Assembly: GCA_028223895.1 (NCBI GenBank)
Contig: JAOIVE010000001.1
Coordinates: 1,270-65,269, forward strand
Direction: 5' to 3'
Origin: Rickettsiales bacterium
Lineage (GTDB): Bacteria; Pseudomonadota; Alphaproteobacteria; Rickettsiales; UBA6187
DNA: 64,000 nt
The notes beneath the pieces are model-generated. The model was given only the letters and a program-made list of their open reading frames with translations. It made no database searches and was not told the DNA's origin. The translations under genes and the position numbers were made by a program. Shown here one piece after another: positions 19,055 through 54,528 of this stretch. Within the stretch, counting starts at the first letter, position 1. Every line of letters begins with the position of its first letter.

Positions 19055-19228
19055 CTAATCTGTGGCTAAGTTACAGCAATGTTGTTCTTTCTGTGATAGC
19101 TCTAGCATTTTGTACTCAGCAATTTTTTCTGTTTTAAGAGTAGGTGTTTTAGTATTTATCTTGATTGCTGGCACAATAACAGCATCAGTTGACTTATATT
19201 CCTTTGAGAACACTGTGTTGTTATACAT
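19055..19228 (-). CDS. 57-aa peptide ending CCNLATD (copy 1), divergent from the Crp/Fnr gene
   Basis: GGAG RBS; same C-terminal heptapeptide as 54370-54528. Confidence 0.75.
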   Translation of the reverse strand: MYNNTVFSKEYKSTDAVIVPAIKINTKTPTLKTEKIAEYKMLELSQKEQHCCNLATD

Positions 19229-19274
19229 ATCCATCTCCACCAAAGGTTGAACATAATCACAATTTACATATACA

Positions 19275-19316
19275 TGTATCGTGTACCGTGTATCGTGTAT
19301 CGTGTATCGTGTATCA
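19275..19316. repeat. Heptanucleotide tandem repeat (TGTATCG)x6, two units imperfect
   Basis: TGTATCG TGTACCG TGTATCG TGTATCG TGTATCG TGTATCA. Confidence 0.9.
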
Positions 19317-19343
19317 GATTATACGTGGTTATGTAATCACGCG

Positions 19344-19357
19344 TTGACAGGTATCAA
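19344..19357. promoter_or_regulatory. FNR/FixK-type box TTGACAGGTATCAA next to the regulator RBS
   Basis: 13 bp before ATG 19371; equivalent to the box at 54601. Confidence 0.85.
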
Positions 19358-19370
19358 GCAGGAGACCGAT

Positions 19371-20156
19371 ATGTCAAATATTATTGAAAAGCCTAATGTA
19401 AAAGAGCTATCAGGTAATAGTGAAAGTTACAGAAATTTTCTAAAAAGCATTCCATTATTTAGCGATTTTCCTGAAGACGCAATTAGTCAGGTTTTGGGTA
19501 ATGCTCGTATAAAGAAATATAATAAGAACGAGATATTATTCATGACCGGCGATAAGGCTGAAAATTTCCGCATTATTATCACCGGGTGGGCAAAATTATA
19601 TCGCCAGACGCGTGATGGGCATGAAGCTATTGTTACCGTTCTTACAAATGGCGAAATGTTTGGGAATACAGCCATTATAAAAAACGGTACTCATGCCTAT
19701 ACGGCAGAAACAGTTGCGGATTCTATCATGTTTCTTATCCCTGCTTCATTTATGTTGCATATGTCTGAGAGCTATCAGCATTTTGATCATTTTCTGGCAA
19801 AATTTCTTGAAGGAGGTTTGGGGCAGTCAACTCAACTTAGTATGAATATAGAACATCTTTCTCAGATGACTTCTGCACAACGGGTTGGGTGTTTTCTTTT
19901 AAGGCTTTGTTTGGGGCAGAAAGAAGGAAGTATTTCGTTGCAACTTCCTTACGAAAAAGGCCTTGTTGCAGGGCGGCTTGGTATGACAGCGGAGACATTT
20001 TCACGCTCTTTAAGCCATTTAATAACCTATGGAGTTGAAACCGACCATTCTATTGTAACGATTCACAATATTATGCAGCTTCGCAGGTATATCTGTGAGC
20101 ATTGTTCCGCAACAACACGAGAATGCCACTTAGGTGAAGATATGGATGAATATTAA
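19371..20156 (+). CDS. Crp/Fnr-family regulator (FixK/Dnr-like) with C-terminal CxxC-x6-C, copy 1
   Basis: cNMP-binding fold (GEMFG), HTH LGMTAETFSRSL, tail CEHCSATTREC; GGAG RBS before MSN. Confidence 0.92.
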   Translation: MSNIIEKPNVKELSGNSESYRNFLKSIPLFSDFPEDAISQVLGNARIKKYNKNEILFMTGDKAENFRIIITGWAKLYRQTRDGHEAIVTVLTNGEMFGNTAIIKNGTHAYTAETVADSIMFLIPASFMLHMSESYQHFDHFLAKFLEGGLGQSTQLSMNIEHLSQMTSAQRVGCFLLRLCLGQKEGSISLQLPYEKGLVAGRLGMTAETFSRSLSHLITYGVETDHSIVTIHNIMQLRRYICEHCSATTRECHLGEDMDEY

Positions 20157-20533
20157 AAACCGAACCTGCTTTTTAACCAATCCATATCAAGTTTTTCCGG
20201 GTGTTCTATATATTTATCCGGATGTTCCAACACATTTTTCACGTAGCTTAAATTAACCCTCCAGGCTTTTTTTACATCTTCAGGAGTGCCGTTATGCACG
20301 AGCTTTTTATCTTTAAATTTAAGTGAGAATGCTCCTTTTGGCTCATCATCGTAAATAGTAAGGTCAATAGGCTTGTCGCCGACAACAGCGTTGGTTGCCG
20401 ATAAAATTTGTTTGTATGGAAATTCGTCCTTATGTTTATCAATAGCCTTATTGCAGATTTCCAGATATTGATTGAATAATTCGTCTATATCACCATTATC
20501 ATCGGCTTTTTCGATTTTAATGCGCTTTTCCAT
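20153..20533 (-). CDS. Hypothetical 126-aa protein (module gene, copy 1)
   Basis: Same length as, and highly similar to, 55423-55803. Confidence 0.85.
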   Translation of the reverse strand: MEKRIKIEKADDNGDIDELFNQYLEICNKAIDKHKDEFPYKQILSATNAVVGDKPIDLTIYDDEPKGAFSLKFKDKKLVHNGTPEDVKKAWRVNLSYVKNVLEHPDKYIEHPEKLDMDWLKSRFGF

Positions 20534-20544
20534 TTTTATTTTCC

Positions 20545-20997
20545 TTAAATATGTATAATTTTTTCAAGATATTCCTGAATTTCTTTTGGATGAAATTCCA
20601 CTAAATCCTTATCAATCTCCAGAGCAATAACATCTTTAACTGTTTTACTTAATTCCTTACGCAAAAAGCCCAGTATTTTGGGTGGAGCGGTGATTATCAG
20701 ACGGTGGTATTCTTCTTTATCAAGTTTATCTTTTAAATATTCGGCCACCTCACGCATGAATTGCTTGCGCTCCAGGGTACGATCACTGGTGTGAGGTTCG
20801 ATAATATGCCTTGCACCGCCTGCGCTATCATAGGTTCGCCCCAACTCGCCTCGTCCGGTTGGTTCATCCGTGCGGATGGGTTTTGCGCTAAGGGTATGGT
20901 GTAAATCACCCAAATGATGTTCTGTCATCATCGTATAAAAATTTGAATGTTTACCATCCATTACAGCTATCCATGTAATACGCTTTTTCTTATTCAC
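20545..20997 (-). CDS. Host-attachment / baeRF12 (eRF1-like) family protein, copy 1
   Basis: TWIAVMDGKHS, GRTYDSAGGARH, LIITAPPKILGFLR, EIDKDL. Confidence 0.85.
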   Translation of the reverse strand: MNKKKRITWIAVMDGKHSNFYTMMTEHHLGDLHHTLSAKPIRTDEPTGRGELGRTYDSAGGARHIIEPHTSDRTLERKQFMREVAEYLKDKLDKEEYHRLIITAPPKILGFLRKELSKTVKDVIALEIDKDLVEFHPKEIQEYLEKIIHI

Positions 20998-21081
20998 AAA
21001 AGTTTCCTTTTTTAATAAAAATCCCAAAAGGCAAGTGGCAACTCAGCATTATGAATTGCCACAATTTAAATAATACCTTTG

Positions 21082-21585
21082 TTAGGCCGCTTCTTTGATA
21101 TCAATCTTGCGAGTTGGTTTTACTGCTTCTTCTTTCTTTGGGATTTCCACCCACAGCACTCCTTTCTTGAAGGTAGCCTTAGTCTTATCGGCATTAGCTG
21201 AATCAGGAAGCGCAATGCTACGTTGGCATGATTCATAGGAAAATTCACGGCAGATATAATCCTCATCTTTATCTTCTTTTGATTCTTTCTTTTCTGCTTT
21301 AATCGTCAGATAATTATCGTTAACCGTAATGTCTACTTCTTCCTGCTTAAACCCTGGTAATTGAGCTTCAATTTTTAGGCTCTTATCATTTTCAATGATA
21401 TTAATCGGAATAGAAAGAGCGCTATTTTTTTCCCATAAAGACGATGCAGGCAACTGACTCTGAAAGTCATTAAAGAAATCTTCAAACATTTGATTCATCT
21501 CGTTTCTTAATGAAGTAGCAGGCCATTCTCTTCTTGTTTTTTTGATATTACCTGGTCGGTTCCGTAATGTAAGGTTAAGTGTCAT
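21082..21585 (-). CDS. Hsp20/alpha-crystallin small heat-shock protein
   Basis: AQLPG, LTIKAEK, RSIALP, ATFKKGVLWVEIPK; ends -EAA. Confidence 0.95.
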   Translation of the reverse strand: MTLNLTLRNRPGNIKKTRREWPATSLRNEMNQMFEDFFNDFQSQLPASSLWEKNSALSIPINIIENDKSLKIEAQLPGFKQEEVDITVNDNYLTIKAEKKESKEDKDEDYICREFSYESCQRSIALPDSANADKTKATFKKGVLWVEIPKKEEAVKPTRKIDIKEAA

Positions 21586-21701
21586 AATAGTTCTCCTGTA
21601 AATGTTTATGGATTTATTTTGGCTTACCTAGCCTTATGTCGCGTTTGTGGTTTAGATTTATCACCTGCATTATAGAAAACCACGAAGTTGGCGTTACATA
21701 C

Positions 21702-21749
21702 TTGATAGACATCAATCGCCTCAAAAGATTATTGTTTGACGAGTATCAA
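21702..21749. promoter_or_regulatory. Two FNR/FixK-type boxes (21702-21715 TTGATAGACATCAA; 21736-21749 TTGACGAGTATCAA)
   Basis: Between divergent hsp20 and CBS genes; mirrored by the pair at 58441/58493. Confidence 0.85.
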
Positions 21750-21845
21750 GTATAGTTTGATTGGTATGTGGTTAATTACAGCTTCCTACATGCCATTATG
21801 GTGCGAAATTAGAAAGTCACAAAAACACATTAAGGGAGTTCCGCC

Positions 21846-22280
21846 ATGTCGAATACCAAAGTAAAAGATGTAATGACCGAGAATCCATCGTTAATTAAAC
21901 CAGAAACCTCCCTTAAAGATGCCGCTAAAAAAATGCAGGAAGTTGGCTGTGGCGTTCTACCGGTAGGCAGTAAAAGTAAGCTTTTGGGTATTATTACCGA
22001 TCGTGATATTGTTATACGCGCTATAGCCGAGGGAGCTGATATCAAAACCGAGCTAGTAGAGGAATATATGTCTGATCGGGTTTATACCTGCAATGAAAAC
22101 AACACGTTAAATGAAGCTGCTGAGATTATGGGTAAGCACAAAATAAGCCGCCTTGTGGTCGAGAATGAAGACGGCAGAATCGTAGGAATTCTTTCACTTG
22201 GCTGCATGTTGCGTAACAATGCCAGTGCCAAAGAAATTGTGGCAGTAGTTGAACAAGCCAGAGGATGTAAAGCTGCGTAG
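21846..22280 (+). CDS. CBS-pair protein (Hrp1-like), copy 1
   Basis: VKDVMT, GVLPV, GIITDRDIVIR, GILSLG; ends -KAA. Confidence 0.92.
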   Translation: MSNTKVKDVMTENPSLIKPETSLKDAAKKMQEVGCGVLPVGSKSKLLGIITDRDIVIRAIAEGADIKTELVEEYMSDRVYTCNENNTLNEAAEIMGKHKISRLVVENEDGRIVGILSLGCMLRNNASAKEIVAVVEQARGCKAA

Positions 22281-22309
22281 TATTATTATGTATTATAAAC
22301 GTTGTCAGT

Positions 22310-22870
22310 TTACTTACTTTTTTGCACGACGAGTTTAGCCACACGGACACCGAGCAACCTTGCCGTCTCCAAATCGCCTTCAGAAGGAGATTTGGAATCA
22401 GGGTCGGATTGGGCCATAGCCCCAATATAACTTCCAATACGGTTTGTGTGATCTTTAGCACCTATAGAGCTACTCGCATCAGGCAGTTGGCCAAGGCTTA
22501 TCCATATCATGCTGTGCTGCGCGGCAAAAATTACTAGTTGCATCAGACTATTTAACTTGTCACCACTTAAGCTCTGTGAATTACTGAACCCGGCGGCATA
22601 TTTATCTTTCCATTTTTGTTCATACCAGCGCGGTGAAGTAGCTTCCATAAACTCCTTAAATTTTGCACTTAGCGACCCCATATAGGTTGGCGATCCAAAA
22701 ATAATAGCATCTGCCTTATCTAAATTTGCCCAGTGTTTTTCAATGTCTGATACTTTCACCAATAAAGAGTTCACCCCCTCAACAGAAGTAGCACCGCCAT
22801 GTACAGACTTTGCCTGATGCTCCGTATGACCAAAGCCACTGTGATATAGCGTAACGATATTTTTATGCAT
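22310..22870 (-). CDS. WrbA/flavodoxin-family NAD(P)H oxidoreductase
   Basis: YHSGFGHT, IIFGSPTYMGS, SGDKL. Confidence 0.9.
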   Translation of the reverse strand: MHKNIVTLYHSGFGHTEHQAKSVHGGATSVEGVNSLLVKVSDIEKHWANLDKADAIIFGSPTYMGSLSAKFKEFMEATSPRWYEQKWKDKYAAGFSNSQSLSGDKLNSLMQLVIFAAQHSMIWISLGQLPDASSSIGAKDHTNRIGSYIGAMAQSDPDSKSPSEGDLETARLLGVRVAKLVVQKSK

Positions 22871-23039
22871 AATATTTCCTTATTAACAAACCCTTTGCTG
22901 GGATTTTATTTGAATTAAATATTTTCTGCAGTTCCGTTTTTAATGTTTCACGTTCTTTTTTCAATTCTTCACGCTCAGACTTTGTTATAGTTAGATCTAA
23001 AAACATCTCTTGGTCATTTTGTCTCGCAGAATTTTTCAT
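22863..23039 (-). CDS. Possible 58-aa small protein
   Basis: MKNSARQNDQEMFLDLTITKSEREELKKERETLK...; overlaps the flavodoxin start and lies downstream of the box at 23117. Confidence 0.35.
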   Translation of the reverse strand: MKNSARQNDQEMFLDLTITKSEREELKKERETLKTELQKIFNSNKIPAKGLLIRKYYA

Positions 23040-23116
23040 TGTTTATCCCAATACGTTGTTTTTAGAGTTGATCCTGTAGTGATGAGCGAGTTAAGCATAA
23101 GTCAAACAAGGTGGAC

Positions 23117-23130
23117 TTGACGGGTGTCAA
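23117..23130. promoter_or_regulatory. FNR/FixK-type box TTGACGGGTGTCAA
   Basis: Identical to the box at 3064; upstream of dps. Confidence 0.85.
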
Positions 23131-23190
23131 TGCGCATATTTTTAATCATGCATAGGATAAAATTCCAATTAATTTACAAGGAATAAAACC

Positions 23191-23655
23191 ATGAGCAAAA
23201 CTGTGGAAAATTTAAGCCATGTACTGGCTGACACCTATACACTTTATTTAAAAACCCAGAATTACCACTGGAATGTAACGGGGCCACAGTTTGACACATT
23301 GCATCAATTATTTGGAAGGCAACATGCTACATTGGCAACGGCTATTGATGAAATAGCAGAACGTATCCGTGCGCTTGGGGAACTTGCTCCTGCTACTTAT
23401 AAAGAGTTTGAGCAGCTTAAATCTATGAAGGAAGGTACCTCTAGTTACTCCGCAGAAGAGATGTTAGATTGCCTATATAAAGGCCATAAGAAAGTTATTG
23501 AAATACTTAAAAATGCATTAAAAACAGCGGAAAATGAAGGTGACGTATTTACTGTTGAGTTACTAACAACACGTATTGGAGCATACCAGAAAGATGCTTG
23601 GATGCTGGCAGCCACTCTTTCTAAAAAACCTGCGTCGCAAACAAAGGCGGCTTAG
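23191..23655 (+). CDS. dps: Dps-family ferritin-like protein, copy 1
   Basis: LYLKTQNYHWNVTG, DEIAERIRALG, WML; ends -KAA. Confidence 0.95.
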   Translation: MSKTVENLSHVLADTYTLYLKTQNYHWNVTGPQFDTLHQLFGRQHATLATAIDEIAERIRALGELAPATYKEFEQLKSMKEGTSSYSAEEMLDCLYKGHKKVIEILKNALKTAENEGDVFTVELLTTRIGAYQKDAWMLAATLSKKPASQTKAA

Positions 23656-23756
23656 TGATGTTTATAGCTTTTTGTTTCGTTAACACTCCAAAATAATCCT
23701 TCTTTGATAGCTTTAACAGAGAGAAATTTACTAATCACATAGATAATGAATTTGTT

Positions 23757-24203
23757 TTATATGTATGATTTATAACGCACTGTTTCCGCTTCCCTACGTT
23801 TTTTTAATCCCTTCAGCTTCTTGCCACCAGCCCAGACCCATTTCATAAATTCGGCTAGTGCAGCTTCATGCTCTTCACGGTTTACTTTCCACCGGAGGGT
23901 GGAGCGTTGGAGTGCGCCGCTGCCTAAGTTGAATGTGAATGATACTAACGCATCAAATTGACCATCAGTAAGCGGCACTTTTATTAACCTGCATACGGCT
24001 CTTTCTGCCAGCAGCACATCCTTAATCAGCAGTGCCCCACCAGCAGCTTCGCTAATTCCATTTTTAAACATTTCAGCTTCGCCTGGTAGCAACAGGTGAC
24101 CATAGCCGATTGTTGGAAGGCCAGCTGCATCCAGATAGATTTCCGGCTCGAATCCTTCGAAGCGTTTGATAAGATTCAATCCTTTTTGTGTGATATGTCT
24201 CAT
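23757..24203 (-). CDS. Phage lysozyme (GH24)
   Basis: LIKRFEG...YLDAAGLPTIGYGH, FDALVSFTFNLG, GLKKRREAE. Confidence 0.95.
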   Translation of the reverse strand: MRHITQKGLNLIKRFEGFEPEIYLDAAGLPTIGYGHLLLPGEAEMFKNGISEAAGGALLIKDVLLAERAVCRLIKVPLTDGQFDALVSFTFNLGSGALQRSTLRWKVNREEHEAALAEFMKWVWAGGKKLKGLKKRREAETVRYKSYI

Positions 24204-24283
24204 GAAAATACTCGTTTTAGTTGTTATTGAAGAATAAATTGCTATGTTTTATGCACAGCCGTAAAAAATTATGAGAATTAGCC

Positions 24284-25696
24284 ATGTCATTATTTCAGAC
24301 CCAAAGACCTGATTTTTTAATATCAGGAGAACGTGCCAGACTTATTCCTGTCATCGCAGACACCAGCAAAGAAGGGCGCATCACAAGTTGTACTCTTGCA
24401 GCGTTTATGTCCGTAAATGAGTTTGCAAAAGGGCTTCTGGATTCAATTGGTATAAGGCTTGGAAAAACTTCAAAAGTTGAATGCTTCACTGAAATCGTAT
24501 TTCAGAACAAAGACAAAACGGCTTCTAAAATCCGTCCGGACGGGCTCATTGTTGTGACCACCGGTAAGAAGCAATGGACTGCACTTGTCGAAGCAAAAAT
24601 CGGAAAAGCGGAGCTGACCGCTGAACAGGTTGAGTCTTATTTGGATTTAGCAAAAGAGCACAAAATTGATGCGGTTATTACATTGTCGAATCAATTCTCC
24701 GCCACTCCAACCCACCATCCAATTACTGTAAGCAAAAACAAGCTACGTAGTGTCGGCCTTTACCATTGGTCATGGACTTTTCTTATTACAGAAGCTGTAA
24801 TGTGGGTAAAATACCACGGAGTAACCGACCCCGATCAGGCATACATATTAGAAGAACTGGTGCGCTACTTGCAGCATGATGGCTCTGGGGTTTTATCTTT
24901 TGATAGCATGAACGGCACATGGAAGGATGTTTGTGCCGCAGTACAGAATCGTATAAGCCTCAAGAAAACATCCCCTGAAGTTTTAGATAGCGTAGCAAGC
25001 TGGCATCAGCTCAGCAGAAATCTTTCCCTTCACTTAGGGCTGGCTGTAGGTGCAAATGTTGGTATTTTTCTAAAAAAGGCGCACAAAGATGATTCCAAAA
25101 AACGTCTTGATGACGACGCAGCTTTATTAGTTTCAGAGCAACTTCTGATAACAGAATTTGATGTACCTGCCGCTGCAGGAAGAATAAAGTTTGCAGCGGA
25201 TGTTGAGAAACGTTGTGTTGTTGTCTCAATGCGCCTTAGAGCTCCAGAGGAAAGAGCTACTACTAAAGGCAGGATAAACTGGCTCACCAGCCAGCTTAAG
25301 AAAGCTACTAACCCTGATTTATCTGTACGTGCTATATGGCCAAGCCGAGCAGCGGATACAATGGCTTTACTCTCCGAGATTAATGAAAAAGGCGCAGATG
25401 CCTTACTTTGTGAGAACAACTCACTTAAACCGGTATCGTTCGAAGTTGTTCTAACGCGTGACATTGGTGCAAAATTTAAAGGCTCCAGAACATTTATTCA
25501 GGAATCAGGTCCATTGCTTATGGAGTTTTATGAGCAGGCAGGGCAACATTTAAAAGAATGGGTTGCTTCAGCTCCAAAAATAAAAACAAAAAAAATAGAT
25601 AATACACTTGAAGATGAAATTGATGAAACTATAGAGAAGGAAACAGTAATTCCTTCGGTTAAGGCTGAGAAAACCAATATCAATTCAGCTGCATAA
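24284..25696 (+). CDS. PD-(D/E)XK nuclease-like moron
   Basis: RPDGLIVV...LVEAKIG; antisense insert between holin and lysozyme. Confidence 0.7.
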   Translation: MSLFQTQRPDFLISGERARLIPVIADTSKEGRITSCTLAAFMSVNEFAKGLLDSIGIRLGKTSKVECFTEIVFQNKDKTASKIRPDGLIVVTTGKKQWTALVEAKIGKAELTAEQVESYLDLAKEHKIDAVITLSNQFSATPTHHPITVSKNKLRSVGLYHWSWTFLITEAVMWVKYHGVTDPDQAYILEELVRYLQHDGSGVLSFDSMNGTWKDVCAAVQNRISLKKTSPEVLDSVASWHQLSRNLSLHLGLAVGANVGIFLKKAHKDDSKKRLDDDAALLVSEQLLITEFDVPAAAGRIKFAADVEKRCVVVSMRLRAPEERATTKGRINWLTSQLKKATNPDLSVRAIWPSRAADTMALLSEINEKGADALLCENNSLKPVSFEVVLTRDIGAKFKGSRTFIQESGPLLMEFYEQAGQHLKEWVASAPKIKTKKIDNTLEDEIDETIEKETVIPSVKAEKTNINSAA

Positions 25697-25707
25697 AGCC
25701 AAATAAT

Positions 25708-25740
25708 ATCGGGTGTCTCGTTTTTGTCGAGACACCCGAT
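25708..25740. terminator. Perfect 13-bp hairpin between convergent genes
   Basis: ATCGGGTGTCTCG-TTTTTGT-CGAGACACCCGAT. Confidence 0.8.
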
Positions 25741-25757
25741 TGGGATGTTGAAGCCGC

Positions 25758-26054
25758 CTAATTCTTCTCCAGCGTAGCAATCACATTCAGTTTCTTGCTG
25801 CCATATTCAAATGTTCCCCACCATTGCTCTTGCCCTGAAATTTTGCGGCGTTCAATCATTAGTGTGAAGCGGTTCACACCGACTATCTTTGCCGAGGCAA
25901 AATCTTCTAATTCAAACCATGATTTGCGTGCAGGTGTGGTTGCCATCTTCTTGACTGTGTTGGCATAAATATCCAGCAGATTTTCGATTTCATTATCGGT
26001 GCATCTGTCGTTCTGGATGTCTTCAATCATGGCTTTATAAAATAATTTGCTCAT
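25758..26054 (-). CDS. Hypothetical phage protein
   Basis: AAAGGGGG RBS before MSKLFYKAMIED. Confidence 0.7.
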   Translation of the reverse strand: MSKLFYKAMIEDIQNDRCTDNEIENLLDIYANTVKKMATTPARKSWFELEDFASAKIVGVNRFTLMIERRKISGQEQWWGTFEYGSKKLNVIATLEKN

Positions 26055-26143
26055 TGTTTCCCCCTTTGTTTTGGTTGGTTTTGGTGTGTACAGTAACGCT
26101 TCTTCTGCGAAGGTAATCAACTGAATAAGAAGAGAAAATCGAA

Positions 26144-26569: not shown

Positions 26570-26570
26570 T

Positions 26571-26819: not shown

Positions 26820-26821
26820 GA

Positions 26822-27568: not shown

Positions 27569-27573
27569 AACAA

Positions 27574-28278: not shown

Positions 28279-28300
28279 GATTTTCTCCAATTAGGTTTGA

Positions 28301-32050: not shown

Positions 32051-32055
32051 AATTG

Positions 32056-45881: not shown

Positions 45882-45890
45882 ATTGTTCTC

Positions 45891-47747
45891 CTAGTTAAAA
45901 TTCCAATCTTCATAGCCAAGCCATTCGCTGGTTTGGCTGGACTCTGGCTGTTGTTCTTCTTTTTGTTTAAGTCGTTCGCGTTCTTGCTCTTTTGCTAATG
46001 CATCCAGATTTGGATTCAGGATGTGCAGTGCTGCCAAGCCATAGACGCGGCAATCTAACGCCTCGTTACGCCTGCCTTTTGGCATCACCCATATGCGTGT
46101 GGGATGGCCGTTGATGAACTTGGTCTGAATGCGTTCTGCTGTCAGTTGCTTAAAATATTTCTCCGGATAATCCGCAGGGAAATGACAATAGCCTGCGCCG
46201 GGCTGATGAATCTTCAGCCGCGAATAAATCATCTGCTTGGCAGTATCCGTACCAATTGAAAATAATTTCACGCGCAATTTATTGTTACGGCTGAACTTGC
46301 TAACCAGCGGCTTGCCAATTTGCGATGCACCTTTGATGGCATAAACGCGTTGATGCTCACGGTTTTTACAATATTCATAAACCTTTTGCGTATGGTGACC
46401 GCCCGTATCAACGCATGCACAGGAGATTGCTAGCGTGCGCCCATCGGTCGTCGTCACCATCTGTTGCAGCACTTTGTCTAAATCTTCCCAGACTTTTAGC
46501 TGAGCTGGATCGCCATGCAGCACATGATATTGCAGCGACCAGCTTTCCTGACCCAAACCCCAGCCGATTAACTCAATTTCTAATCGGTCGTCCTGCACGT
46601 CCACACCAGCGGTAATCACCACCACGCCTTCTGGCGATATGCGCCCCCAGTTTTCTTTGCGTCCGAGCAAACCCGATGGATCAATCCCTTCGGTGGCTTC
46701 TTTCCATGTTTCGCCAAGGCTGGTATTCACCCAAACTTTGAGAGTTTCCGGCAGGCGTTTGGCTTTAAAAAAATTTACCACCATCTCTGACCATTTAACC
46801 CATGGGCTATACAGCTCAGAGATATGAAAGCCTGCAATGCCGTTAAATGCGGCTTCGGCTTTCCATTCGCCTCGTGCCAGCATCCATATTTTATCGCTCT
46901 CTTGTAGCTTGGCCTTGCAATGCTCACATTCATAATGCGTGGTTTTAGGCTGGCGTTTCTCAAACTTCACCTGCGCCCAACTGAGCACTTGAAATGCCCC
47001 ACATTCGGGGCATGGTACATAATATTTCTGCTGATCGCTTTGCTCATAACGTGCTGCAATCTTACTCTCTCCCTCATTGGTGGGAGTAGACGCTGAAACC
47101 AACAGGCGGTTCCAGAATGTCGTGGTACGCTTATAAGCCAGCGAGCCTGGGTCACCTTCCGTACCAGCCGAATGCGGATAACGGTCTTCTTCATCCAGCA
47201 GCACAATCCGTATCGGGCGACTGGCAAGCGAGGCGGGGCTATTTGCTCCCGCCATCGTAATATGCCCACCTACGAATTTCTTGTGCAGCAGCGTGTTGTT
47301 GCTATTGCGGCTGCGCGGATCACCTAATAATTCCGCCAGCTCATCCGTATCACGAATCATCGGCGCAAGGCGGTCTTTACTCCATGTTTCCGCCATATCC
47401 AAAGTTGGCTGAATCAGCAGCAGGGGCGATGGGTCCTGATGCATAAAATAACCGATGATATTATTGATAATCTCGGTTTTGCCGATCTGCGAGCTGGTCA
47501 TGTACACCACCTCCGATACGCCCGGCTTATTCACCGCATCCATCATCCCCCTTTGATACGGTGCGCGATCGGTTACCCACTTTCCCGGTTCCGAGCTTGC
47601 TTCCGGACTCAGGCGGCGATACTGATCCGCCCACTGGCTCACCGTCAGTTCCGGCGGCGGAGTCCAGGCCTTCATCACCGTCTTCATCATCTGCGGATAT
47701 GTCTTCTTCTTCCGATTCATAGGTAGCCAGCTCCGATAACGCCTCAA
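45891..47747 (-). CDS. Terminase large subunit (lambda gpA family); start uncertain
   Basis: SSQIGKTE, LDEEDRY, STPT, CPEC/CEHC, GVDVQ, VDTGG, RNEALDC. Confidence 0.95.
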   Translation of the reverse strand: MRRYRSWLPMNRKKKTYPQMMKTVMKAWTPPPELTVSQWADQYRRLSPEASSEPGKWVTDRAPYQRGMMDAVNKPGVSEVVYMTSSQIGKTEIINNIIGYFMHQDPSPLLLIQPTLDMAETWSKDRLAPMIRDTDELAELLGDPRSRNSNNTLLHKKFVGGHITMAGANSPASLASRPIRIVLLDEEDRYPHSAGTEGDPGSLAYKRTTTFWNRLLVSASTPTNEGESKIAARYEQSDQQKYYVPCPECGAFQVLSWAQVKFEKRQPKTTHYECEHCKAKLQESDKIWMLARGEWKAEAAFNGIAGFHISELYSPWVKWSEMVVNFFKAKRLPETLKVWVNTSLGETWKEATEGIDPSGLLGRKENWGRISPEGVVVITAGVDVQDDRLEIELIGWGLGQESWSLQYHVLHGDPAQLKVWEDLDKVLQQMVTTTDGRTLAISCACVDTGGHHTQKVYEYCKNREHQRVYAIKGASQIGKPLVSKFSRNNKLRVKLFSIGTDTAKQMIYSRLKIHQPGAGYCHFPADYPEKYFKQLTAERIQTKFINGHPTRIWVMPKGRRNEALDCRVYGLAALHILNPNLDALAKEQERERLKQKEEQQPESSQTSEWLGYEDWNFN

Positions 47748-48168
47748 AAATGGTGCGCTTTAAAAACTTCTCAATTTCATGCGTGTCTTTTAAGTTAGAG
47801 ATCTGATAGGCGGTCTTGGTCGGGATGCTCAGCATCTTGGCGCGGCACGCCGTAACCATCTGGCTCCAGTCTGCTTCCACCCGTTCTACCGTCACCAGTT
47901 CGCCCGTTCGTTCTGCCAACTCAATCTCAGCCATATCGGCTTGCGCTTTGAGCAGCCGTGCTCGTTCCAGATGCGTATCCTGTGGCGCGACACCCTGACC
48001 GAAAGCACGTTGTTGCAGATAATTGATGTAGGATCGAACGCAGCCGATTAACTCATACTGGTTCTTTTCCGGCTTCGGGATAACACCTTCTCGCGCCAGT
48101 TGCTGTACCCGCCGTTCGGATAGTCCGAAGAGTTTTGCAATAGTGCTGACAGGATAAGCCGTTGGCAT
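47527..48168 (-). CDS. Terminase small subunit (Nu1-like)
   Basis: IAKLFGLSERRVQQL HTH; ERARLLKAQADMAE...GELV. Confidence 0.9.
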   Translation of the reverse strand: MPTAYPVSTIAKLFGLSERRVQQLAREGVIPKPEKNQYELIGCVRSYINYLQQRAFGQGVAPQDTHLERARLLKAQADMAEIELAERTGELVTVERVEADWSQMVTACRAKMLSIPTKTAYQISNLKDTHEIEKFLKRTIFEALSELATYESEEEDISADDEDGDEGLDSAAGTDGEPVGGSVSPPESGSKLGTGKVGNRSRTVSKGDDGCGE

Positions 48169-48287
48169 GGTAATACGCTCATTTTATTCATAATTTTCCA
48201 TCTAATTGACTTGATTAAGAGCGTGATTGAAGCATTCATGGATATGTCCTCAAAGGGCAAAACATTAATCAAAAAAGGAACTTAACA

Positions 48288-48476
48288 ATGAATCAAGAAG
48301 CTAGATTTAACGCATTTATCAAACAGCTAACTCTATTATCCAAAGAGCATGGCATTGCCATACAAGCCATAGGAGGCGTGCATATTTTTGATAAACCCGA
48401 AGATGCCAAAAACATCGCTTATAGCCAAGATCACACAAGCGGCGACCTTGAATACACACTTAATGAGCAGGAGTAA
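48288..48476 (+). CDS. Hypothetical small phage protein
   Basis: AAGGA RBS; FIKQLTLLSKEHGIAI. Confidence 0.7.
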   Translation: MNQEARFNAFIKQLTLLSKEHGIAIQAIGGVHIFDKPEDAKNIAYSQDHTSGDLEYTLNEQE

Positions 48477-48481
48477 TTACC

Positions 48482-48801
48482 ATGAAAAATACCAACAAAA
48501 CTAATAAAACAAAATCACCCTCTAATGCTGCACAAGCAACATCCAGCAACAGCGTGCAACACGATGCAACACCAAGCAACGCACCTAAAAGCCGGAAACC
48601 AAACAATCGATTATCATTGGCTTGCTCACCCGCGAGGAGGGAGCAACACTACCAGAACTCATTGCCGCCACCGAATGGAAACCCCATTCGGTACGCGGCC
48701 ATCTTTCCAACCTGCGGAAAAAGCGAGGCATGCCGATTGAGACATTTACCAACACTGATGGCAATCGCGGTTATCGTCTGGTTGAAGCTCAAGCCTCCTG
48801 A
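48482..48801 (+). pseudogene. DUF3489-family protein, frameshifted in the A4 run at 48587-48590
   Basis: The second frame reads TKQSIIIGLLTREEGATLPELIAATEWKPHSVRGHLSNLRKKRG...YRL. Confidence 0.75.
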
Positions 48802-50021
48802 CGCTTCGCCGCCACCTGCGCGAACGATTTCTTTTCACCGGCCAGCGTTGCGTTGTTGCCGGTGAACTCTTCCCACCGTTTCACAATCACATCACAGTAA
48901 ATCGGATCAAGTTCAATCAGCCGTGCTTGCCGTTTCAATTTCTCGCAAGCGATTAAGGTTGAACCTGAACCACCAAAGGAATCCAGCACAATATCACGAG
49001 TCTTGCTGGAATTCTCAATCGCACGGCACACCAGCTCAACAGGTTTCATGGTGGGGTGCAGGTCGTTAACATTGGGTTTGTTATAATTCCAGATATCACT
49101 CTGGCTGCGATCACCACACCAGTAATGCTTGCTGCCTTCAGGCCAGCCATAGAGGATAGGCTCATACTGCCGTTGATAATCGGCACGCCCCATGGTAAAA
49201 GTATTCTTCGCCCAGATGATAAACGTTGACCAGTGCCCACCGGCTTCAAGGTAAGCCTTTTGCAGCGTGTGTAATTCGGAGGAGGACATGCAAATATACA
49301 TCGCACCCTTGCATACCTTTACCATGTTGGTGCAGGCGTCCAGCAGGAACTGATAAAACCCAGCACCGAGATTATCATTCTTGATCTTCCGTTTGTTACC
49401 ACGCACGCTATCTTTCATGCTCTGACCATAATCGACATTGTAAGGCGGATCGGTGAAAACCATGTCGGCCAGTTCGTCACCCATCAGCTTTTCTAGGGTT
49501 TTGGCTTTTGTGCTATCGCCGCAAATCAAACGATGATCGCCCAACAGCCAGATATCACCTTCCTTGGAAACGGCCACTTCGGGAGCTTCCGGTATGGCAT
49601 CTTCGTCGGTGAGACCGTCCATCCCCACATCGCCCAGCAGTTTTTCAAGCTCAACAGTATCAAAGCCTGTAAGATCGAGATCAAATCCCAGATCACCTAA
49701 TTCGCCCAGTTCAATCGCCAAGAGTTCTTCGTCCCATTCCGCATCTTCATGGGTGCGGTTGTCAGCCAGCCTGTACGCCTTTATCTGCGCTGGAGTTAGG
49801 CCGTCGGCAATATGCACGGGAACTTTCTTTAACCCCAGCGACTGCGCCGCCTGTAGGCGCGTGTGGCCTGCAATAATGACCATTTCCTCATCCACTACGA
49901 TGGGCTGGCGGAATCCATACTCCTTGATGGAAGCTGCCACCTTGGCGATTGCGTTTTCATTGTGGCGTGGATTCCGCGCATAGGGAATCACCCGACCGAT
50001 TTCGATCAGTTCTACTTTCAT
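48789..50021 (-). CDS. ParB-N domain + DNA amino-methyltransferase
   Basis: PYARNPR, GFRQPI, AGHTR; FTDPPY, HPTMKP, LDSFGGSGST. Confidence 0.93.
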   Translation of the reverse strand: MKVELIEIGRVIPYARNPRHNENAIAKVAASIKEYGFRQPIVVDEEMVIIAGHTRLQAAQSLGLKKVPVHIADGLTPAQIKAYRLADNRTHEDAEWDEELLAIELGELGDLGFDLDLTGFDTVELEKLLGDVGMDGLTDEDAIPEAPEVAVSKEGDIWLLGDHRLICGDSTKAKTLEKLMGDELADMVFTDPPYNVDYGQSMKDSVRGNKRKIKNDNLGAGFYQFLLDACTNMVKVCKGAMYICMSSSELHTLQKAYLEAGGHWSTFIIWAKNTFTMGRADYQRQYEPILYGWPEGSKHYWCGDRSQSDIWNYNKPNVNDLHPTMKPVELVCRAIENSSKTRDIVLDSFGGSGSTLIACEKLKRQARLIELDPIYCDVIVKRWEEFTGNNATLAGEKKSFAQVAAKRQEA

Positions 50022-50064
50022 GTTGGTTCCTGTATGTTGATTAATTCTGTGCATCCGCCATTGC

Positions 50065-50230
50065 AAACGAAATGGCTCAAATACCCCATTTCGTTTGGAA
50101 ACGACCTAAGTATTTGTTTTATAGAGATTCATGCGCCGCCCAAACGAAACGAAATGCAAAGTTTTGTTTTATGCCTAGCCAAAAGCCGCGCCCTCGGCGT
50201 ACCCGTAGGGGCAACCCCACGGGAGTACCT
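50065..50230 (-). other. Putative cos packaging site (cosQ/cosN/cosB-like)
   Basis: Minus strand AGGTACT...TACG-GGTACGCCGAGGG-CGCGG, then three CATTTCGTTT repeats and an IHF-like site. Confidence 0.6.
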
Positions 50231-50260
50231 TTTTGAATCGGGCTGATTAGGTGCGGTGTG

Positions 50261-50845
50261 TTAGCGGCTTTTGAGTCGCTTGAGATAGAAGGCAAGGTTG
50301 CGCGCAAACTCAATGGGGAAGCGTTCCCGTATCGTTGTTTGCATCACCTGATCGTTCTCACGCTGCCGGAACAACTGCATGATGCCAGGACCATACAACA
50401 TCTTAAGCGGCTTACGCTTAGGGCCTTTGCGAATGTAAACCGTGGTCTTGCTTGACCCGCTGCGGCGCGGAGCGATGAAAGCTTTGCTGTAGGTGCGTGT
50501 CTTGCCATAGACCTTTGCTTTGACCAACCCACGCTTGCCACCCTTTTGCTGAGTGGGTTTCTTGCTGCCCACCACAAACTCAATGAGCTGTAACGCACGG
50601 TCACGCGCCACCAACGTTGCCCACAAACGTTTGAAGGTTGCTTTCTGTGTTTCAATGCGCCGCTTTACACCAGCCTGCCTGCTGTTCATTTGTGGTGCTA
50701 TGTGTCTGGCACTTGCCACTTTGGCACTCTCTGCCACACGATTAAGCGTCCGCACAGTTGCCTGCGGTGCCACCTGTTTTTCAAGCGTGCTTAAACTCCG
50801 CCTCAATTTCTTGAGATCGTGCTGTACTGTGATGTCAAATGCCAT
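50261..50845 (-). CDS. Minor tail protein Z-like
   Basis: Basic 194 aa; RTLNRVA, AFIA, LYGPGI. Confidence 0.75.
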   Translation of the reverse strand: MAFDITVQHDLKKLRRSLSTLEKQVAPQATVRTLNRVAESAKVASARHIAPQMNSRQAGVKRRIETQKATFKRLWATLVARDRALQLIEFVVGSKKPTQQKGGKRGLVKAKVYGKTRTYSKAFIAPRRSGSSKTTVYIRKGPKRKPLKMLYGPGIMQLFRQRENDQVMQTTIRERFPIEFARNLAFYLKRLKSR

Positions 50846-51073
50846 GGTAAAAATCCTAAAATGCTAGGCTGCAAGCCGTTGTTCACGCGCTCTGAATATG
50901 ATTGACCAGTCCTGCAAAAGGTCTATTAATTGGTTCGAATTATTTCGGACGATGTCCACCACGCTTCGCCCTTCGGGCTATGCGTGGCGCAGCCACGTGT
51001 AGAACGTTAGGCCGAAGCAGTGCCCGGCGTAGTTAGAGCAAATCGGAAACGTAGACGGGCTGGAGCAAATACA

Positions 51074-51316
51074 ATGTGGTATGTTTACATAATCAGAAGC
51101 ATTAATCACCCAGAGCAAGAATACACTGGCGCTAGCCAAGACCTCAAACAACGCATCAAAGAGCATAACTCCGGCAAATCAACCCACACAGCTAAGTTTG
51201 CACCTTGGGAATTAGTGTGGTATTGTGCCTTTCCAGATAAATACAAAGCCCTTGAATTTGAGAAATATTTGAAGTCGCATTCTGGTAGGGCCTTTGCAAA
51301 AAAGAGACTCTGCTAG
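51074..51316 (+). CDS. Small GIY-YIG nuclease-family protein
   Basis: MWYVYII...YTG..DLKQRIKEHNSG...FEKYLKSHSGRAF. Confidence 0.9.
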   Translation: MWYVYIIRSINHPEQEYTGASQDLKQRIKEHNSGKSTHTAKFAPWELVWYCAFPDKYKALEFEKYLKSHSGRAFAKKRLC

Positions 51317-51389
51317 CCGTTTAATGAGTTGATATTTGCCTTGTAAATCCTATAGTTGAGGAGTTCGACTCGGGTTTGGTATAAATAAA

Positions 51390-52196
51390 ATGGTTTTTTT
51401 GCAGCATAGCATTATAAGGCACACTACTATTGAAAAAATGCTGAAATATGCTGTTCAGTTGAATGCTCTCTTTATCCCTGCAAACTCGGTACAAAGTTCA
51501 CTATCACGTTATACTCATCCTCCTGTTATCCATAATCACAATGAAGAAATTTATACATGTAGCTTAAGAGGATCATCTATAGGCATATATTACCGAAAGC
51601 GATACCTACTTTTATGTACACGTCACCAGCTAAACGGATGCGATTATAAGGACGTAGGATTAATCGATAAAGATGGAGATAGCCTACATACCTCTGCTGG
51701 AAGTTGGCATTACCCCCCTAGTGTAAATGAAACTGATTTGAATGATTTAATTGTATTTGATTTCACTGCGCCATGTAACTATAGTCCATATATGAAGGAG
51801 TGGTTTTTCTCTCTTGAATGTTTTCCACCCAATTCACCGTCAAATGGGATAATTGCTTTTATTATTTCTGGATATCCTTCTCAAGAACAAAAGTATAACT
51901 TAGGAGAAGAAGAAAAACATTTAGGATTCCGAAGAGAATCAATTACCTGTTTATTAGGATCCTACGATGATCAAGTAAAAGGAGATCCTTCTATCTTATG
52001 TCTATCGTATGATCATAATTCTGATTTTAATCCAGATGGTATGAGTGGTGGCGCTGCCTTTGTTATACAGTTAGTAAATGGCAAACCACGTGCATATCTA
52101 GCCGGTATGGTAGTTCGAGCTGGAAATGGTAAATTCTATATACTGAGAATAGGTTTTATACAGAAGTTTATTGATCAATATTTAGATCGTCTTTAG
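51390..52196 (+). CDS. Trypsin-like serine protease moron
   Basis: LLCTRHQ (His), NDLIVF (Asp), DGMSGG (Ser); AT-rich. Confidence 0.6.
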   Translation: MVFLQHSIIRHTTIEKMLKYAVQLNALFIPANSVQSSLSRYTHPPVIHNHNEEIYTCSLRGSSIGIYYRKRYLLLCTRHQLNGCDYKDVGLIDKDGDSLHTSAGSWHYPPSVNETDLNDLIVFDFTAPCNYSPYMKEWFFSLECFPPNSPSNGIIAFIISGYPSQEQKYNLGEEEKHLGFRRESITCLLGSYDDQVKGDPSILCLSYDHNSDFNPDGMSGGAAFVIQLVNGKPRAYLAGMVVRAGNGKFYILRIGFIQKFIDQYLDRL

Positions 52197-52213
52197 TTGT
52201 TCCTCGTGTAAAA

Positions 52214-52414
52214 CTAAACTCCTTTCTCCAACACCACCCGCGCCATCAACTCAATCGTATTCACCAACTCTACCTTCTGCTCTTCCGTGAGATCAAAATT
52301 ATCAATATGAGGTCGATACGGCGCGAGAGGGTCATTTTCGCCCACCTCTGCCGATGATATTAATGAAGGTACGATTTTTTGTTCATCCTGTTTAGTCTTT
52401 TTTTGTTCGAACAC
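52214..52414 (-). CDS. Hypothetical small protein
   Basis: GTG start after GGAGG; YRPHIDNFDLTEEQKVEL. Confidence 0.45.
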   Translation of the reverse strand: MFEQKKTKQDEQKIVPSLISSAEVGENDPLAPYRPHIDNFDLTEEQKVELVNTIELMARVVLEKGV

Positions 52415-52415
52415 T

Positions 52416-52646
52416 TTAACGCCCTCCCAGATTCGAATTCAGGCGTGTAACGATTTTAAGCAGCGCATACGTCCACATCTGCCATGCTTTGGTACGACCA
52501 CAGCCAAGCCGCCAGCAAATTGGCTTCCATGGAATTCGGGCGGCACGGAGCCAGACCAGCCTGCGTTCTTCCTCATCATCGAGCCAGAAAATCCAATGCA
52601 GCGTTTTTTCCATCCGGCTGATTGCGTCTGGCGTAGGTGGCCCCAT
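52416..52646 (-). pseudogene. C-terminal half of a phage DUF6362-like regulator
   Basis: PPTPDAISRMEKTLHW..WL..EERRLVWLRA..IPWKPIC; the N-terminus is replaced by phaC sequence. Confidence 0.75.
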
Positions 52647-53393
52647 GCCGCAGCGATAGCCAATAACTTACCACCCAAACAATATCCTACAGCATGTATC
52701 TTTTTGTCAGGCACGACATCCTGCGCCGCATCAATTGCTTCGAATAACCCGCGCTTGAGATAATCATTTAAACCAACATTCCGATATTCGGCGGTGGGGT
52801 TTTTCCACGAAATCATAAATACCGTATGCCCCTTGATCCACGAGATATTTCACTAGAGAATTATGGTCAGATAAATCAAGAATGTAATATTTCATAATCC
52901 ATGCCGGAACGATAAATACCGGCTCGGCATAAACATTATTAGTAATGGGTTTGTATTGAATCACCTCCAGCAACTCATTGCGGAAGATGATTTTTCCTTT
53001 TGTAATGGCAAGATTTTTTCCGACCTCGAATTGTTCTAAACCCACTGGCTTTTCATCATTTACCAAGCAAGACATATCCTCCAACAGGTTCATCCAACCG
53101 GTGACGAGGTTTATGCCCTTTTGCTCTTGCGTTGCCTTCGTCAGTAATGGATTGGTGGGCACGAAATTGGAAGGGGCGATGGCATCGATCATCTGGCGAA
53201 TGGTAAAGGATACGAGGTCAAGACTATGCGGATTCACCCCGCGCACATGGCTCGTCGTCTGCTTCCACCAATCCCGATAAAGTAGAAATGATTGCTGGTA
53301 GACATTATAGGGAAATTGGCACAAGCCCTCTGCCTTGAACCGACGATCTGTTGGGTCGGGATTCACCGGGCATGCTGGATTATCTTGTATCAT
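52647..53393 (-). pseudogene. phaC: Truncated, frameshifted PHA synthase
   Basis: DRRF, PSNFVPTNP, VPAWIMKYYILDL, +1 frameshift in C4 at 52829-52832, MISWKNP, GYCLGG, then an abrupt end. Confidence 0.9.
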
Positions 53394-53446
53394 GGTGTTT
53401 GTTGATTTCTATAACTTTTGGCATGTGGTTTATTCCGTTTCATTAA

Positions 53447-53758
53447 CTATTCTTTTCTTTTTCGTGCGATTTCCTCACTGGCTATTTTCTTATCATCCAG
53501 GGCTTTTGCAGAGTCTACACTTCTTTGGTAGTGCAAAGAAACATTATCTATGAATTCCTTTGTAGTCCCGCCTTGACAATCAGATGATAGCTTTTCAAGT
53601 AGCTCCTCAAGTAGCTCCTCAAGAGCCATATCTATGCTGACCGCCTCAATAAGCAAACCTTTTAGGCGGCTGTGCAACTCTTCGGGGTCAGCAAAATTTT
53701 CTACTGCTTGGGTATACCCCTTGATTATCGTATCAAACCGGCTGTTTTTTTTTGACAT
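53447..53758 (-). CDS. Hypothetical protein (module gene A, copy 2)
   Basis: Paralog of 18080-18397. Confidence 0.8.
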   Translation of the reverse strand: MSKKNSRFDTIIKGYTQAVENFADPEELHSRLKGLLIEAVSIDMALEELLEELLEKLSSDCQGGTTKEFIDNVSLHYQRSVDSAKALDDKKIASEEIARKRKE

Positions 53759-53816
53759 TTGAACCCCCTGCGACTGGATTATCTATAATTTTTAACAAAA
53801 AATAAAATATGCTATC

Positions 53817-53830
53817 TTGATACCTGTCAA
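53817..53830. promoter_or_regulatory. FNR/FixK-type box TTGATACCTGTCAA
   Basis: Equivalent to the box at 18458. Confidence 0.85.
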
Positions 53831-53915
53831 ATCATGAGAAAATAATGTTCTTTATATTTCAGTGCACAGGAGATATTGGGTTTCCGGTAATAACCGATTT
53901 TTAAGGATAACGATC

Positions 53916-54107
53916 ATGATATTATTTAAAAAAGAATCATCTTTCGGACATAAACAAGGACAAGGAAGCAAAAAACAGGAGCAACCCTCTAAAAGTGCCC
54001 AGTCGCACAAAAACAAGGACGCTTCCTGTGATACTAAACCTAATAAGGGCCACAAAAGCGGATCATCTTGTGGAACTTCTCCTAAAAAAGGTGACACCTG
54101 CAATTAA
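53916..54107 (+). CDS. 63-aa Lys-rich peptide ending SCGTSPKKGDTCN (copy 2)
   Basis: AAGGA RBS; paralog of 18557-18730; hairpin at about 54117-54152. Confidence 0.8.
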   Translation: MILFKKESSFGHKQGQGSKKQEQPSKSAQSHKNKDASCDTKPNKGHKSGSSCGTSPKKGDTCN

Positions 54108-54167
54108 AATGGTAAGCGCATACCTTCCTGTGTATAACAGGGAGGTGTGTGTTTAGGTCGATGAATT

Positions 54168-54323
54168 ATGGAAAGTGATCATATAATGGACGATGAGGTC
54201 GAAAATGGTAATCAGCTCCTGGTAAATATGCCTGATATTGAGAATTATATTATTGAGTATACGCCTAGAAAAAGCTCCACCATGGTTAATTTCTTCCACG
54301 CAGGCTTAACAAATGTTGAGTAG
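54168..54323 (+). CDS. Unannotated 51-aa micropeptide (MPDIE family, copy 2)
   Basis: MESDHIMDDEVENGNQLLVNMPDIENYIIEYTPRKSSTMVNF...; similar to 6936-7058. Confidence 0.65.
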   Translation: MESDHIMDDEVENGNQLLVNMPDIENYIIEYTPRKSSTMVNFFHAGLTNVE

Positions 54324-54369
54324 TATAAATTTTTGAATTTCCCTTACAACGGTTAGTGGCAAATCCTCA

Positions 54370-54528
54370 TTAATCCGTTGCCAAATTGCAGCAATATTCC
54401 TCTTTCTTGTTGAGTTTTTTTGAATTATCAATGTGTTTTTCAACTATCTTTAAGCTAGATTCCTTTGGAAGATTTTGCTGTATTTCCTTTATATCAGATT
54501 TCTCGATTATCCTATTGACAACACGCAT
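54370..54528 (-). CDS. Unannotated 52-aa peptide ending CCNLATD (copy 2)
   Basis: AAAGGTGAG RBS; MRVVNRIIEKSDIKE...KKEEYCCNLATD; divergent from Crp/Fnr copy 2. Confidence 0.75.
   Translation of the reverse strand: MRVVNRIIEKSDIKEIQQNLPKESSLKIVEKHIDNSKKLNKKEEYCCNLATD

Follow-up and report, generated by a model that had tools for sequence, protein, structure and literature searches.

Two tail-sharing genes and their divergent regulators

The stretch of Rickettsiales bacterium DNA analysed here (assembly GCA_028223895.1, contig JAOIVE010000001.1, positions 1,270 to 65,269; 64,000 nucleotides (nt), hereafter the window) holds two paralogous gene clusters, each with a small gene, CC1 or CC2, for a peptide ending in CCNLATD, and each with a gene for a Crp/Fnr regulator transcribed away from it. 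The four genes are as follows.

19055..19228, minus strand: microprotein gene CC1, 57 amino acids (aa), end KEQHCCNLATD, stop TAG, family profile score 67 bits
54370..54528, minus strand: microprotein gene CC2, 52 aa, end KEEYCCNLATD, stop TAA, family profile score 48.7 bits
19371..20156, plus strand: Crp/Fnr regulator copy 1 (crp1), matching Pfam cNMP_binding and HTH_Crp_2 (HTH, helix-turn-helix), with invariant C174, C180, C242, C245 and C252
54629..55426, plus strand: Crp/Fnr regulator copy 2 (crp2), matching the same two Pfam families, 62% identical to copy 1

An earlier note on this DNA, made from the letters alone, had described the two minus-strand open reading frames (ORFs) as each ending in CCNLATD and a stop, each preceded by a ribosome-binding site and each divergent from a Crp/Fnr gene, and all of this was borne out. 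In the ORF listing and the raw sequence the translated C-termini read ...SQKEQHCCNLATD-TAG for CC1 and ...NKKEEYCCNLATD-TAA for CC2; CC1 has the Shine-Dalgarno (SD) sequence GGTGGAG at 19235-19241, 6 nt ahead of its ATG at 19228, CC2 has the SD-like site AAGGTGAG about 10 nt ahead of its ATG at 54528, and the Pfam matches of both divergent neighbours are those given above. To call the two peptides unalignable outside the tail, as the same note did, was slightly overstated, since a few N-terminal columns align, although the overall identity in the protein comparison is just 30%; the flanking paralogous proteins share 48-67%. Over the last seven codons CC1 and CC2 differ at 5 nt, all in third position and all synonymous, and the exact CCNLATD-stop pattern occurs at these two places only in the 1.45-Mb, 68%-complete assembly, where the reversed control pattern has no occurrence.

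A rare family of microproteins

Judged from sequence comparison, CC1 and CC2 belong to a rare and previously undescribed family of microproteins, which we could assemble to 25 distinct sequences of 48-64 aa, 12 of them at DNA loci and 13 as further metagenome proteins (P0005, P0006, P0127-P0129 and P0131-P0138). The DNA loci are the window pair, two in genome G019 and one each in G146, G147, G055, G054, G098, G375, G004 and G073, so that, by a six-frame profile search, 10 of the 401 genomes searched from this order carry the family. Six loci, namely the window pair and one each in G146, G147, G019 and G055, are referred to below as the core loci. Every member ends in L..KE..CC..ATD-stop, with the single exception of G375, which has AC for CC. 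The strong selection on a vicinal-cysteine C-terminus that the earlier note proposed therefore holds at the protein level and generalises to this longer pattern over the 25 sequences, and its suggestion to look for the motif beside homologous regulators elsewhere was rewarded in G146, G147, G019, G055 and G375.

The family was found through its gene neighbourhood: homologs of a 126-aa neighbour encoded in both clusters occur in 21 of the 301 genomes searched from the order, and in two fetched loci tblastn placed the tail next to the Crp ortholog (...LLPKEEYCCNCATD in G146 and ...LLPKEEYCCNSATD in G147). A pattern with the fourth codon left free gave six matches in 5 of the 401 genomes and no control matches, adding G019 (CCNMATD) and G055 (CCNTATD); these loci are all divergent from a Crp ortholog of 43-58% identity. 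The six-frame profile search of the 401 genomes, which returned 11 genomes including a spurious match in G360 that lacks the motif and was discarded, added the second G019 copy, G054, G098, G375, G004 and G073. Among proteins, a profile search of a collection of 5.8 billion added P0005 and P0006, and one of 1.84 billion cluster representatives gave 18 matches at E <= 0.001, 17 of which are proteins of 50-62 aa with the motif at their end; P0130 (1170 aa, nine matched stretches) was set aside as a presumed low-complexity match. The members are all unnamed or 'hypothetical' and fall in clusters of one or two sequences.

In the 5.8-billion-protein collection a word-indexed search with just the window pair found no match, and neither CC1 nor CC2 is among its called proteins. 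None of the other 11 genomes of the taxonomic family contains the strict motif pattern. As a DNA pattern, CCN(L/F)ATD-stop was also met at 22 loci on public genome contigs and 38 on metagenome contigs, collections that may leave out records of the window's own genome; these loci were rejected as chance-like: tblastn found no Crp homolog at them, many end in TGG or lie in very short frames, and about half read F, as YTN also encodes Phe. Pfam-A has no significant match for either peptide (chance-level rows only, E 0.009-0.06, far under the cut-off), and NCBIfam has nothing for CC1 and only E 0.095 for CC2. The motif strings were not found in the searchable literature, nor was anything relevant on the topic. 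The earlier note's remark that it knew of no described family with this motif thus agrees with null results in Pfam, NCBIfam, Rfam and the searchable literature alike.

The coding strand

The choice of strand is impossible from the substitution pattern alone, because the five nucleotide differences between CC1 and CC2 are synonymous in the plus-strand frame that shares their wobble positions as well as in the peptide frame. That antisense frame is open in the window, where it reads a conserved *SVAKLQQ, and also in G146 and G147 (SVAxLQQ), so that the conservation could in principle belong to an antisense ORF, or to a DNA or RNA element, rather than to the peptide. However, the antisense frame is interrupted by internal stops at 8 of the 12 DNA loci, and in the window the plus-strand frames begin at GTG and TTG codons that are not homologous and have no SD sequence, whereas an ATG with an SD sequence precedes the peptide-sense ORF at all 12. 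Among the invariant codons (L, K, E, C, A, T, D and stop) the third position varies in eight of eight across the DNA loci, and positions 1 and 2 vary just in Leu and the stop. In every case the conserved block ends exactly at the stop, for which three different codons are in use. From the SD sequence and ATG, the broken antisense frame, the stop-anchored block and the third-position variation it follows that the minus strand is the coding one and that both ORFs are genuine protein genes; gene callers, independently of this analysis, predicted at least 17 family members.

The earlier note had named a DNA or RNA element among the findings that would undo its proposal, and here the period-3 substitutions exclude a plain site, Rfam gives no match at gathering score across the whole window, and a small hairpin read at 19060-19076 is not retained in locus 2. 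The antisense or non-coding reading is thus largely refuted, and we regard it as scarcely credible.

The conserved tail and its predicted structure

The microproteins consist of some 40 poorly conserved N-terminal residues followed by the invariant L-x2-K-E-x2-C-C-x2-A-T-D-COOH. In an AlphaFold2 model of CC1 built on a 19-row alignment (mean predicted local distance difference test score, pLDDT, 69), the sole predicted structure is a helix that spans residues 46-55 (block means of the pLDDT are 87 for residues 41-50 and 78 for residues 51-57); the N-terminal part is probably disordered. The invariant L44, K47, E48, C51, C52, A55 and T56 would lie on one face of the helix, because they are spaced i, i+3/4, and the frequent Pro just ahead of the K fits, in our own reading, a helix N-cap. 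The resulting picture is of a disordered microprotein whose short terminal helix would serve for docking or ligand binding and present two thiols together with acidic groups.

Vicinal cysteines near a C-terminus occur in the flexible tails of MerA (…CC..) and insect thioredoxin reductase (…SCCS), and ArsD has vicinal cysteine pairs. The likeness to the MerA and thioredoxin reductase tails lies in a Cys-Cys pair a few residues from the free C-terminus, which in those enzymes is a mobile arm for redox or metal transfer. In MerA, thioredoxin reductase and ArsD, however, the tail belongs to a large enzyme or chaperone, whereas here it is the sole conserved part of a free-standing protein of 50-60 aa, and none of the annotated neighbours at the peptide loci is a mercury, arsenic or thioredoxin-reductase gene.

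In its size of about 50-65 aa, its disorder, its invariant C-terminal helix and its terminal acidic residue the peptide also resembles the protein modifiers Pup and UBact, and could accordingly be a tag ligated through the invariant C-terminal Asp. We consider this highly improbable: Pup ligase (PF03136) was found in none of five carrier genomes, while the control, Corynebacterium glutamicum, was matched, and the peptide ends in ATD, not in GGQ or GGE.

The regulator, FNR-type boxes and candidate promoters

In the alignment of 14 regulator homologs, a C-terminal CxxCx6C and two more cysteines in the HTH region are invariant in all 14. The best NCBIfam matches of the regulator are FtrB and Fnr, far below the cut-off. 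With its Crp/Fnr fold, its C-terminal CxxC...C triad and its box of the TTGAT-N4-ATCAA type the regulator resembles the Fnr of Bacillus subtilis and Bacillus cereus, a type in which such a triad ligates an O2-labile 4Fe-4S cluster; an Fe-S cluster in the window's regulator is putative. In B. subtilis Fnr, as described in PMC3520743, the 4Fe-4S cluster is bound by C227, C230 and C235 (a C-terminal CxxCx4C) and D141; set against that description, the window's regulator differs in the spacing of its triad (CxxCx6C, or x5 in distant copies, versus x4) and in its two extra HTH-region cysteines.

A pattern scan of the window for TTGAY-N4-RTCAA palindromes gave 16 where 0.43 are expected. One lies between each peptide gene and its regulator.

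19344..19357: FNR-type palindrome TTGACAGGTATCAA, common to CC1 and crp1, centre 122 nt from the CC1 ATG
54601..54614: FNR-type palindrome TTGATGGGTATCAA, common to CC2 and crp2, centre 79 nt from the CC2 ATG
19318..19323, minus strand: candidate -10 hexamer TATAAT of CC1, 28-33 nt from the box centre (sequence reading)
54571..54582, minus strand: candidate -10 region ATTATAAGCATA of CC2, containing TATAAG (sequence reading)

Other examples stand at 3064, 3488, 3551, 6871, 14916, 21702, 21736, 23117, 58441, 58493, 60871 and 63195. The boxes precede small-peptide genes, HSP20 genes, CBS-domain genes and others, many of them between divergent HSP20 and CBS genes, and the window as a whole has the look of an island of the regulon of its Fnr-like regulators. 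The box at 19344..19357 abuts the SD sequence of crp1 (AGGAG), which suggests that the regulator is autoregulated.

At all six core loci there is exactly one box, 79-122 nt upstream of the peptide ATG, and five of these loci also have a TAnnnT-type hexamer at a distance of 28-35 nt from the centre of the box. In a class II FNR promoter the centre of the box is about 41.5 bp ahead of the transcription start and the -10 hexamer lies 30-35 nt from the box centre. The spacing at those five loci would fit a promoter of this type, with the hexamers as candidate -10s. G375 also has a box between regulator and peptide, which brings the loci with a box to 7 of 12. Between the box and the start of CC1 there is, as a separate observation, a heptanucleotide tandem repeat, TGTATCG x5.9 with 94% matches (19275-19315), which is absent from locus 2 and falls in the predicted 5′ untranslated region or promoter region of CC1.

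Gene context

Each cluster reads, in order, a 103-109-aa protein, a second small peptide (57 or 63 aa) ending in CGTSPKKGDTCN, an 88-aa protein with two transmembrane (TM) segments (cluster 1 only), the CC peptide and the Crp/Fnr regulator, and beyond the regulator the 126-aa protein, a Host_attach/baeRF12 protein and HSP20. The HSP20 gene follows directly in cluster 1; in cluster 2 three ORFs come before it, one of 101 aa, one for a rhodanese and one for a 257-aa protein with an HSP20 domain. Recurrent neighbours of the peptide genes include HSP20, USP, CBS, P-type ATPase, PhaC, MaoC and pta-ackA, which suggests a regulon of low-oxygen or dormancy type.

The pairing of peptide and regulator that the earlier note drew from the two clusters stands for 7 of the 12 loci, where the peptide gene is head-to-head with a Crp/Fnr gene carrying the C-terminal CxxCx6C triad, and fails at the other five, which have no Crp/Fnr gene within +/-1.5 kb. 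Conversely, the regulator ortholog of G001 (59% identical) has no such peptide upstream. In G004, one of the five loci with no Crp/Fnr gene nearby, the peptide gene sits mid-operon, in the order HSP20, 103-aa protein, peptide, 128-aa protein and flavodoxin-like protein.

The variable N-terminal part followed by a conserved, Cys-, Thr- and Asp-containing C-terminal segment is also the layout of the precursors of ribosomally synthesised and post-translationally modified peptides (RiPPs); the leader would then be the variable stretch and the core CCxxATD, and by our own reading the N-terminal part has alternating hydrophobic patterns of the kind bound by recognition domains. Such a precursor would be expected to travel with a maturase (YcaO, LanM/KC, rSAM-SPASM and similar enzymes) and in most cases with a protease or exporter. 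Among the annotated neighbours in the window, G146, G147, G019 and G055, of which a subset is annotated, there is no YcaO, lanthipeptide synthetase or SPASM radical-SAM protein, the only radical-SAM neighbour carries an RlmN N-terminal domain, and comparison by homology to the window's cluster genes likewise brought up no peptide-modifying enzyme. No maturase, exporter, transporter or protease gene recurs beside the peptide gene, and the contexts differ between loci, which makes a RiPP precursor very unlikely.

Genes downstream of the peptide

In cluster 1 the peptide gene is followed within the same operon by the gene of the two-TM protein, referred to here as TM88.

18779..19045, minus strand: TM88, small two-TM membrane protein with a Cys-rich tail, 88 aa, 9 nt downstream of CC1

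TM88 homologs follow the peptide in G146 and G055, with a gap of 10 nt and the peptide stop directly against the next SD sequence (GAT TAA GGAG), and in G147, where a 91-aa Cys-rich ORF (L106 9491-9766(+)), present in this genome only and without a family match above cut-off, lies between the two. These further copies are at L104 7267-7521(-), L106 9800-10033(+) (G147) and L119 1287-1493(-). In G019 the genes downstream of the peptide encode a MaoC-phosphotransacetylase fusion and acetate kinase (pta-ackA), and downstream of CC2 there is neither a TM88 remnant nor any gene conserved with the other loci.

TM88 belongs to a widespread, unnamed family of about 66 aa with 501 matches in bacteria and archaea, mostly without the Cys-rich tail. 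It does not explain the peptide, because relatives in 3 of 150 other genomes of the class occur in unrelated contexts and without it. As to TM88 itself, the core WYDISLIKLSTAAFVLMxAKLWPPLL is highly conserved and common to hundreds of these unnamed proteins, the Cys-rich cytoplasmic tail occurs in few copies, the G147 copy ends in ...ACCNETSDKK, a faint echo of the peptide motif, and an ESM Atlas search gave sub-threshold look-alikes only.

The position of the peptide at the head of an operon, with a variable N-terminus and about 14 last residues that are invariant and abut the stop, recalls the stop-codon arrest peptides TnaC and SpeFL, and a cis-acting leader whose tail acts within the exit tunnel while the ribosome is at the stop could tune translation of the next gene, the more so as the stop lies directly on the next SD sequence in G146 and G055 and only 9 nt from the next gene in the window. 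Against such a leader, what follows the peptide changes from locus to locus (TM88 at three, another ORF and then TM88 at one, pta-ackA at one) and the motif of CC2 is intact with no TM88 remnant or conserved gene behind it. The gap of 9-22 nt is too small to accommodate an mRNA hairpin that could switch, the stop may be any of three codons, and the length is held at 48-64 aa with a weakly conserved middle, while TnaC and SpeFL have 24-34 aa. Ribosome arrest is accordingly an explanation that we find quite unlikely.

Proposed role

The reading we prefer, which in our estimate is about equally apt to prove right or wrong, is that the peptide may be a trans-acting thiol microprotein, of redox or metal function, controlled by an Fnr box within a low-oxygen stress regulon. 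In the window and the core subfamily the peptide gene is the first in a small operon, usually followed by the two-TM membrane protein, and the divergent regulator would activate it from the single shared FNR-type box in class II placement. The peptide would thereby be co-induced with a low-oxygen and stress regulon comprising HSP20, USP, CBS, P-type ATPase, polyhydroxyalkanoate (PHA) genes, pta-ackA and Host_attach/baeRF12. The cysteine tail could then serve as a thiol module, either through a reversible vicinal disulfide or as a ligand of a metal or an Fe-S cluster, while the helix face would dock onto a partner in trans. We infer that the regulator activates the gene, that low oxygen is the signal, that the tail works by thiol chemistry and that the peptide acts in trans; the last is indicated because the motif of CC2 is intact without TM88 or another conserved gene downstream, because different genes follow the peptide elsewhere (pta-ackA in G019) and because in G004 it sits in the middle of an HSP20 operon. 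That the motif is kept also at loci without the regulator likewise favours a module acting in trans.

Several observations weigh against this proposal. A vicinal disulfide cannot be universal, given the one cysteine of G375, and Fnr control is not family-wide, as 5 of the 12 loci have neither a box (allowing one mismatch at most) nor a Crp/Fnr gene within the distance given above. A consensus promoter scan of 18400-19450 listed nothing above shuffle level and did not list the CC1 promoter, although this miss is expected of an activator-dependent promoter that lacks a -35. The -10 assignments are readings of sequence, the thiol or metal chemistry is drawn solely from the conservation of Cys, Glu and Asp, and the peptide has no known partner.

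The adjacent regulator is a candidate for such a partner, and the peptide could bind it directly, either as an anti-activator or as a thiol-ligand donor to, or competitor for, its putative C-terminal Fe-S site, so that the two together would form a two-component sensor. The head-to-head arrangement with this regulator subfamily at 7 of the 12 loci speaks for it, as does the fact that regulator and peptide were duplicated as a unit and kept in cluster 2 despite the loss of TM88; moreover, the candidate ligands of the regulator are all Cys-based and the peptide offers two more. However, the adjacency is explained equally well if the peptide is a target gene, 5 of the 12 loci have no regulator nearby, and regulators without the peptide exist both in G001 and, as copies of about 35% identity, in eight further loci. 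The regulator moreover already has five invariant cysteines. A prediction of the complex of the regulator dimer with the peptide scored 0.00, a 'no answer' which counts neither for nor against binding, and on the whole we hold direct partnership to be improbable. We likewise think it unlikely that the peptide is, more specifically, the second component of an oxygen or redox sensor, with its helix docked on the Bacillus-like Fnr regulator and its cysteines completing, competing for or repairing the C-terminal Fe-S site, in which case the regulator would switch on, from the box common to both genes, a modulator that donates thiols to it, and a protein of 55 residues would close a feedback loop. 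We know of no description of an Fnr accessory factor of this thiol-donating microprotein kind.

Microproteins are routinely missed by annotation and the present family is an unusually clean case, with some 40 freely drifting residues set against seven residues of the tail and a stop position that do not change between families of an uncultured order. If the tail does work in redox or metal chemistry, or modulates the regulator, bacterial low-oxygen sensing would gain a new small component with a compact motif. Should the trans-acting thiol microprotein prove to be just an accessory stress protein, it would still be a well-defined new family that deserves a database model.

Other features of the two clusters

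The second small peptide mentioned above forms a conserved pair of its own (18557-18730(+) and 53916-54107(+)), with 57 and 63 aa, a Lys-rich composition and three cysteines. The two copies are 54% identical and both end in CGTSPKKGDTCN-stop, a block in which they differ by four synonymous changes; both genes have an AAGGA SD sequence and an FNR-type box upstream (18458-18471 and 53817-53830), and at locus 1 there is a GC-rich hairpin followed by a T-rich stretch. No Pfam or NCBIfam match was found for this peptide, and tblastn was negative in 12 related loci.

The gene of the 126-aa protein (20153-20533(-) and 55423-55803(-)) is convergent with each regulator gene, which it overlaps by 4 nt, and it adjoins a Crp/Fnr gene in 10 of the 12 fetched loci. 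Its AlphaFold2 model has a pLDDT of 80; a Foldseek search with it returned nothing at E <= 0.001 and many weak SCP2/UbiJ-like rows, to be taken as a lead only.

Finally, a broken PhaC gene lies at 52439-53393(-), as a 209-aa piece and a second, out-of-frame piece of 125 aa, with the remainder missing and small unrelated ORFs past it. Over 188 aa the larger piece matches residues 99-286 of the PhaC of G146, which is intact and has 603 aa, with 91% identity; this is far above the 58% between the neighbouring regulators and hints at a recent transfer.

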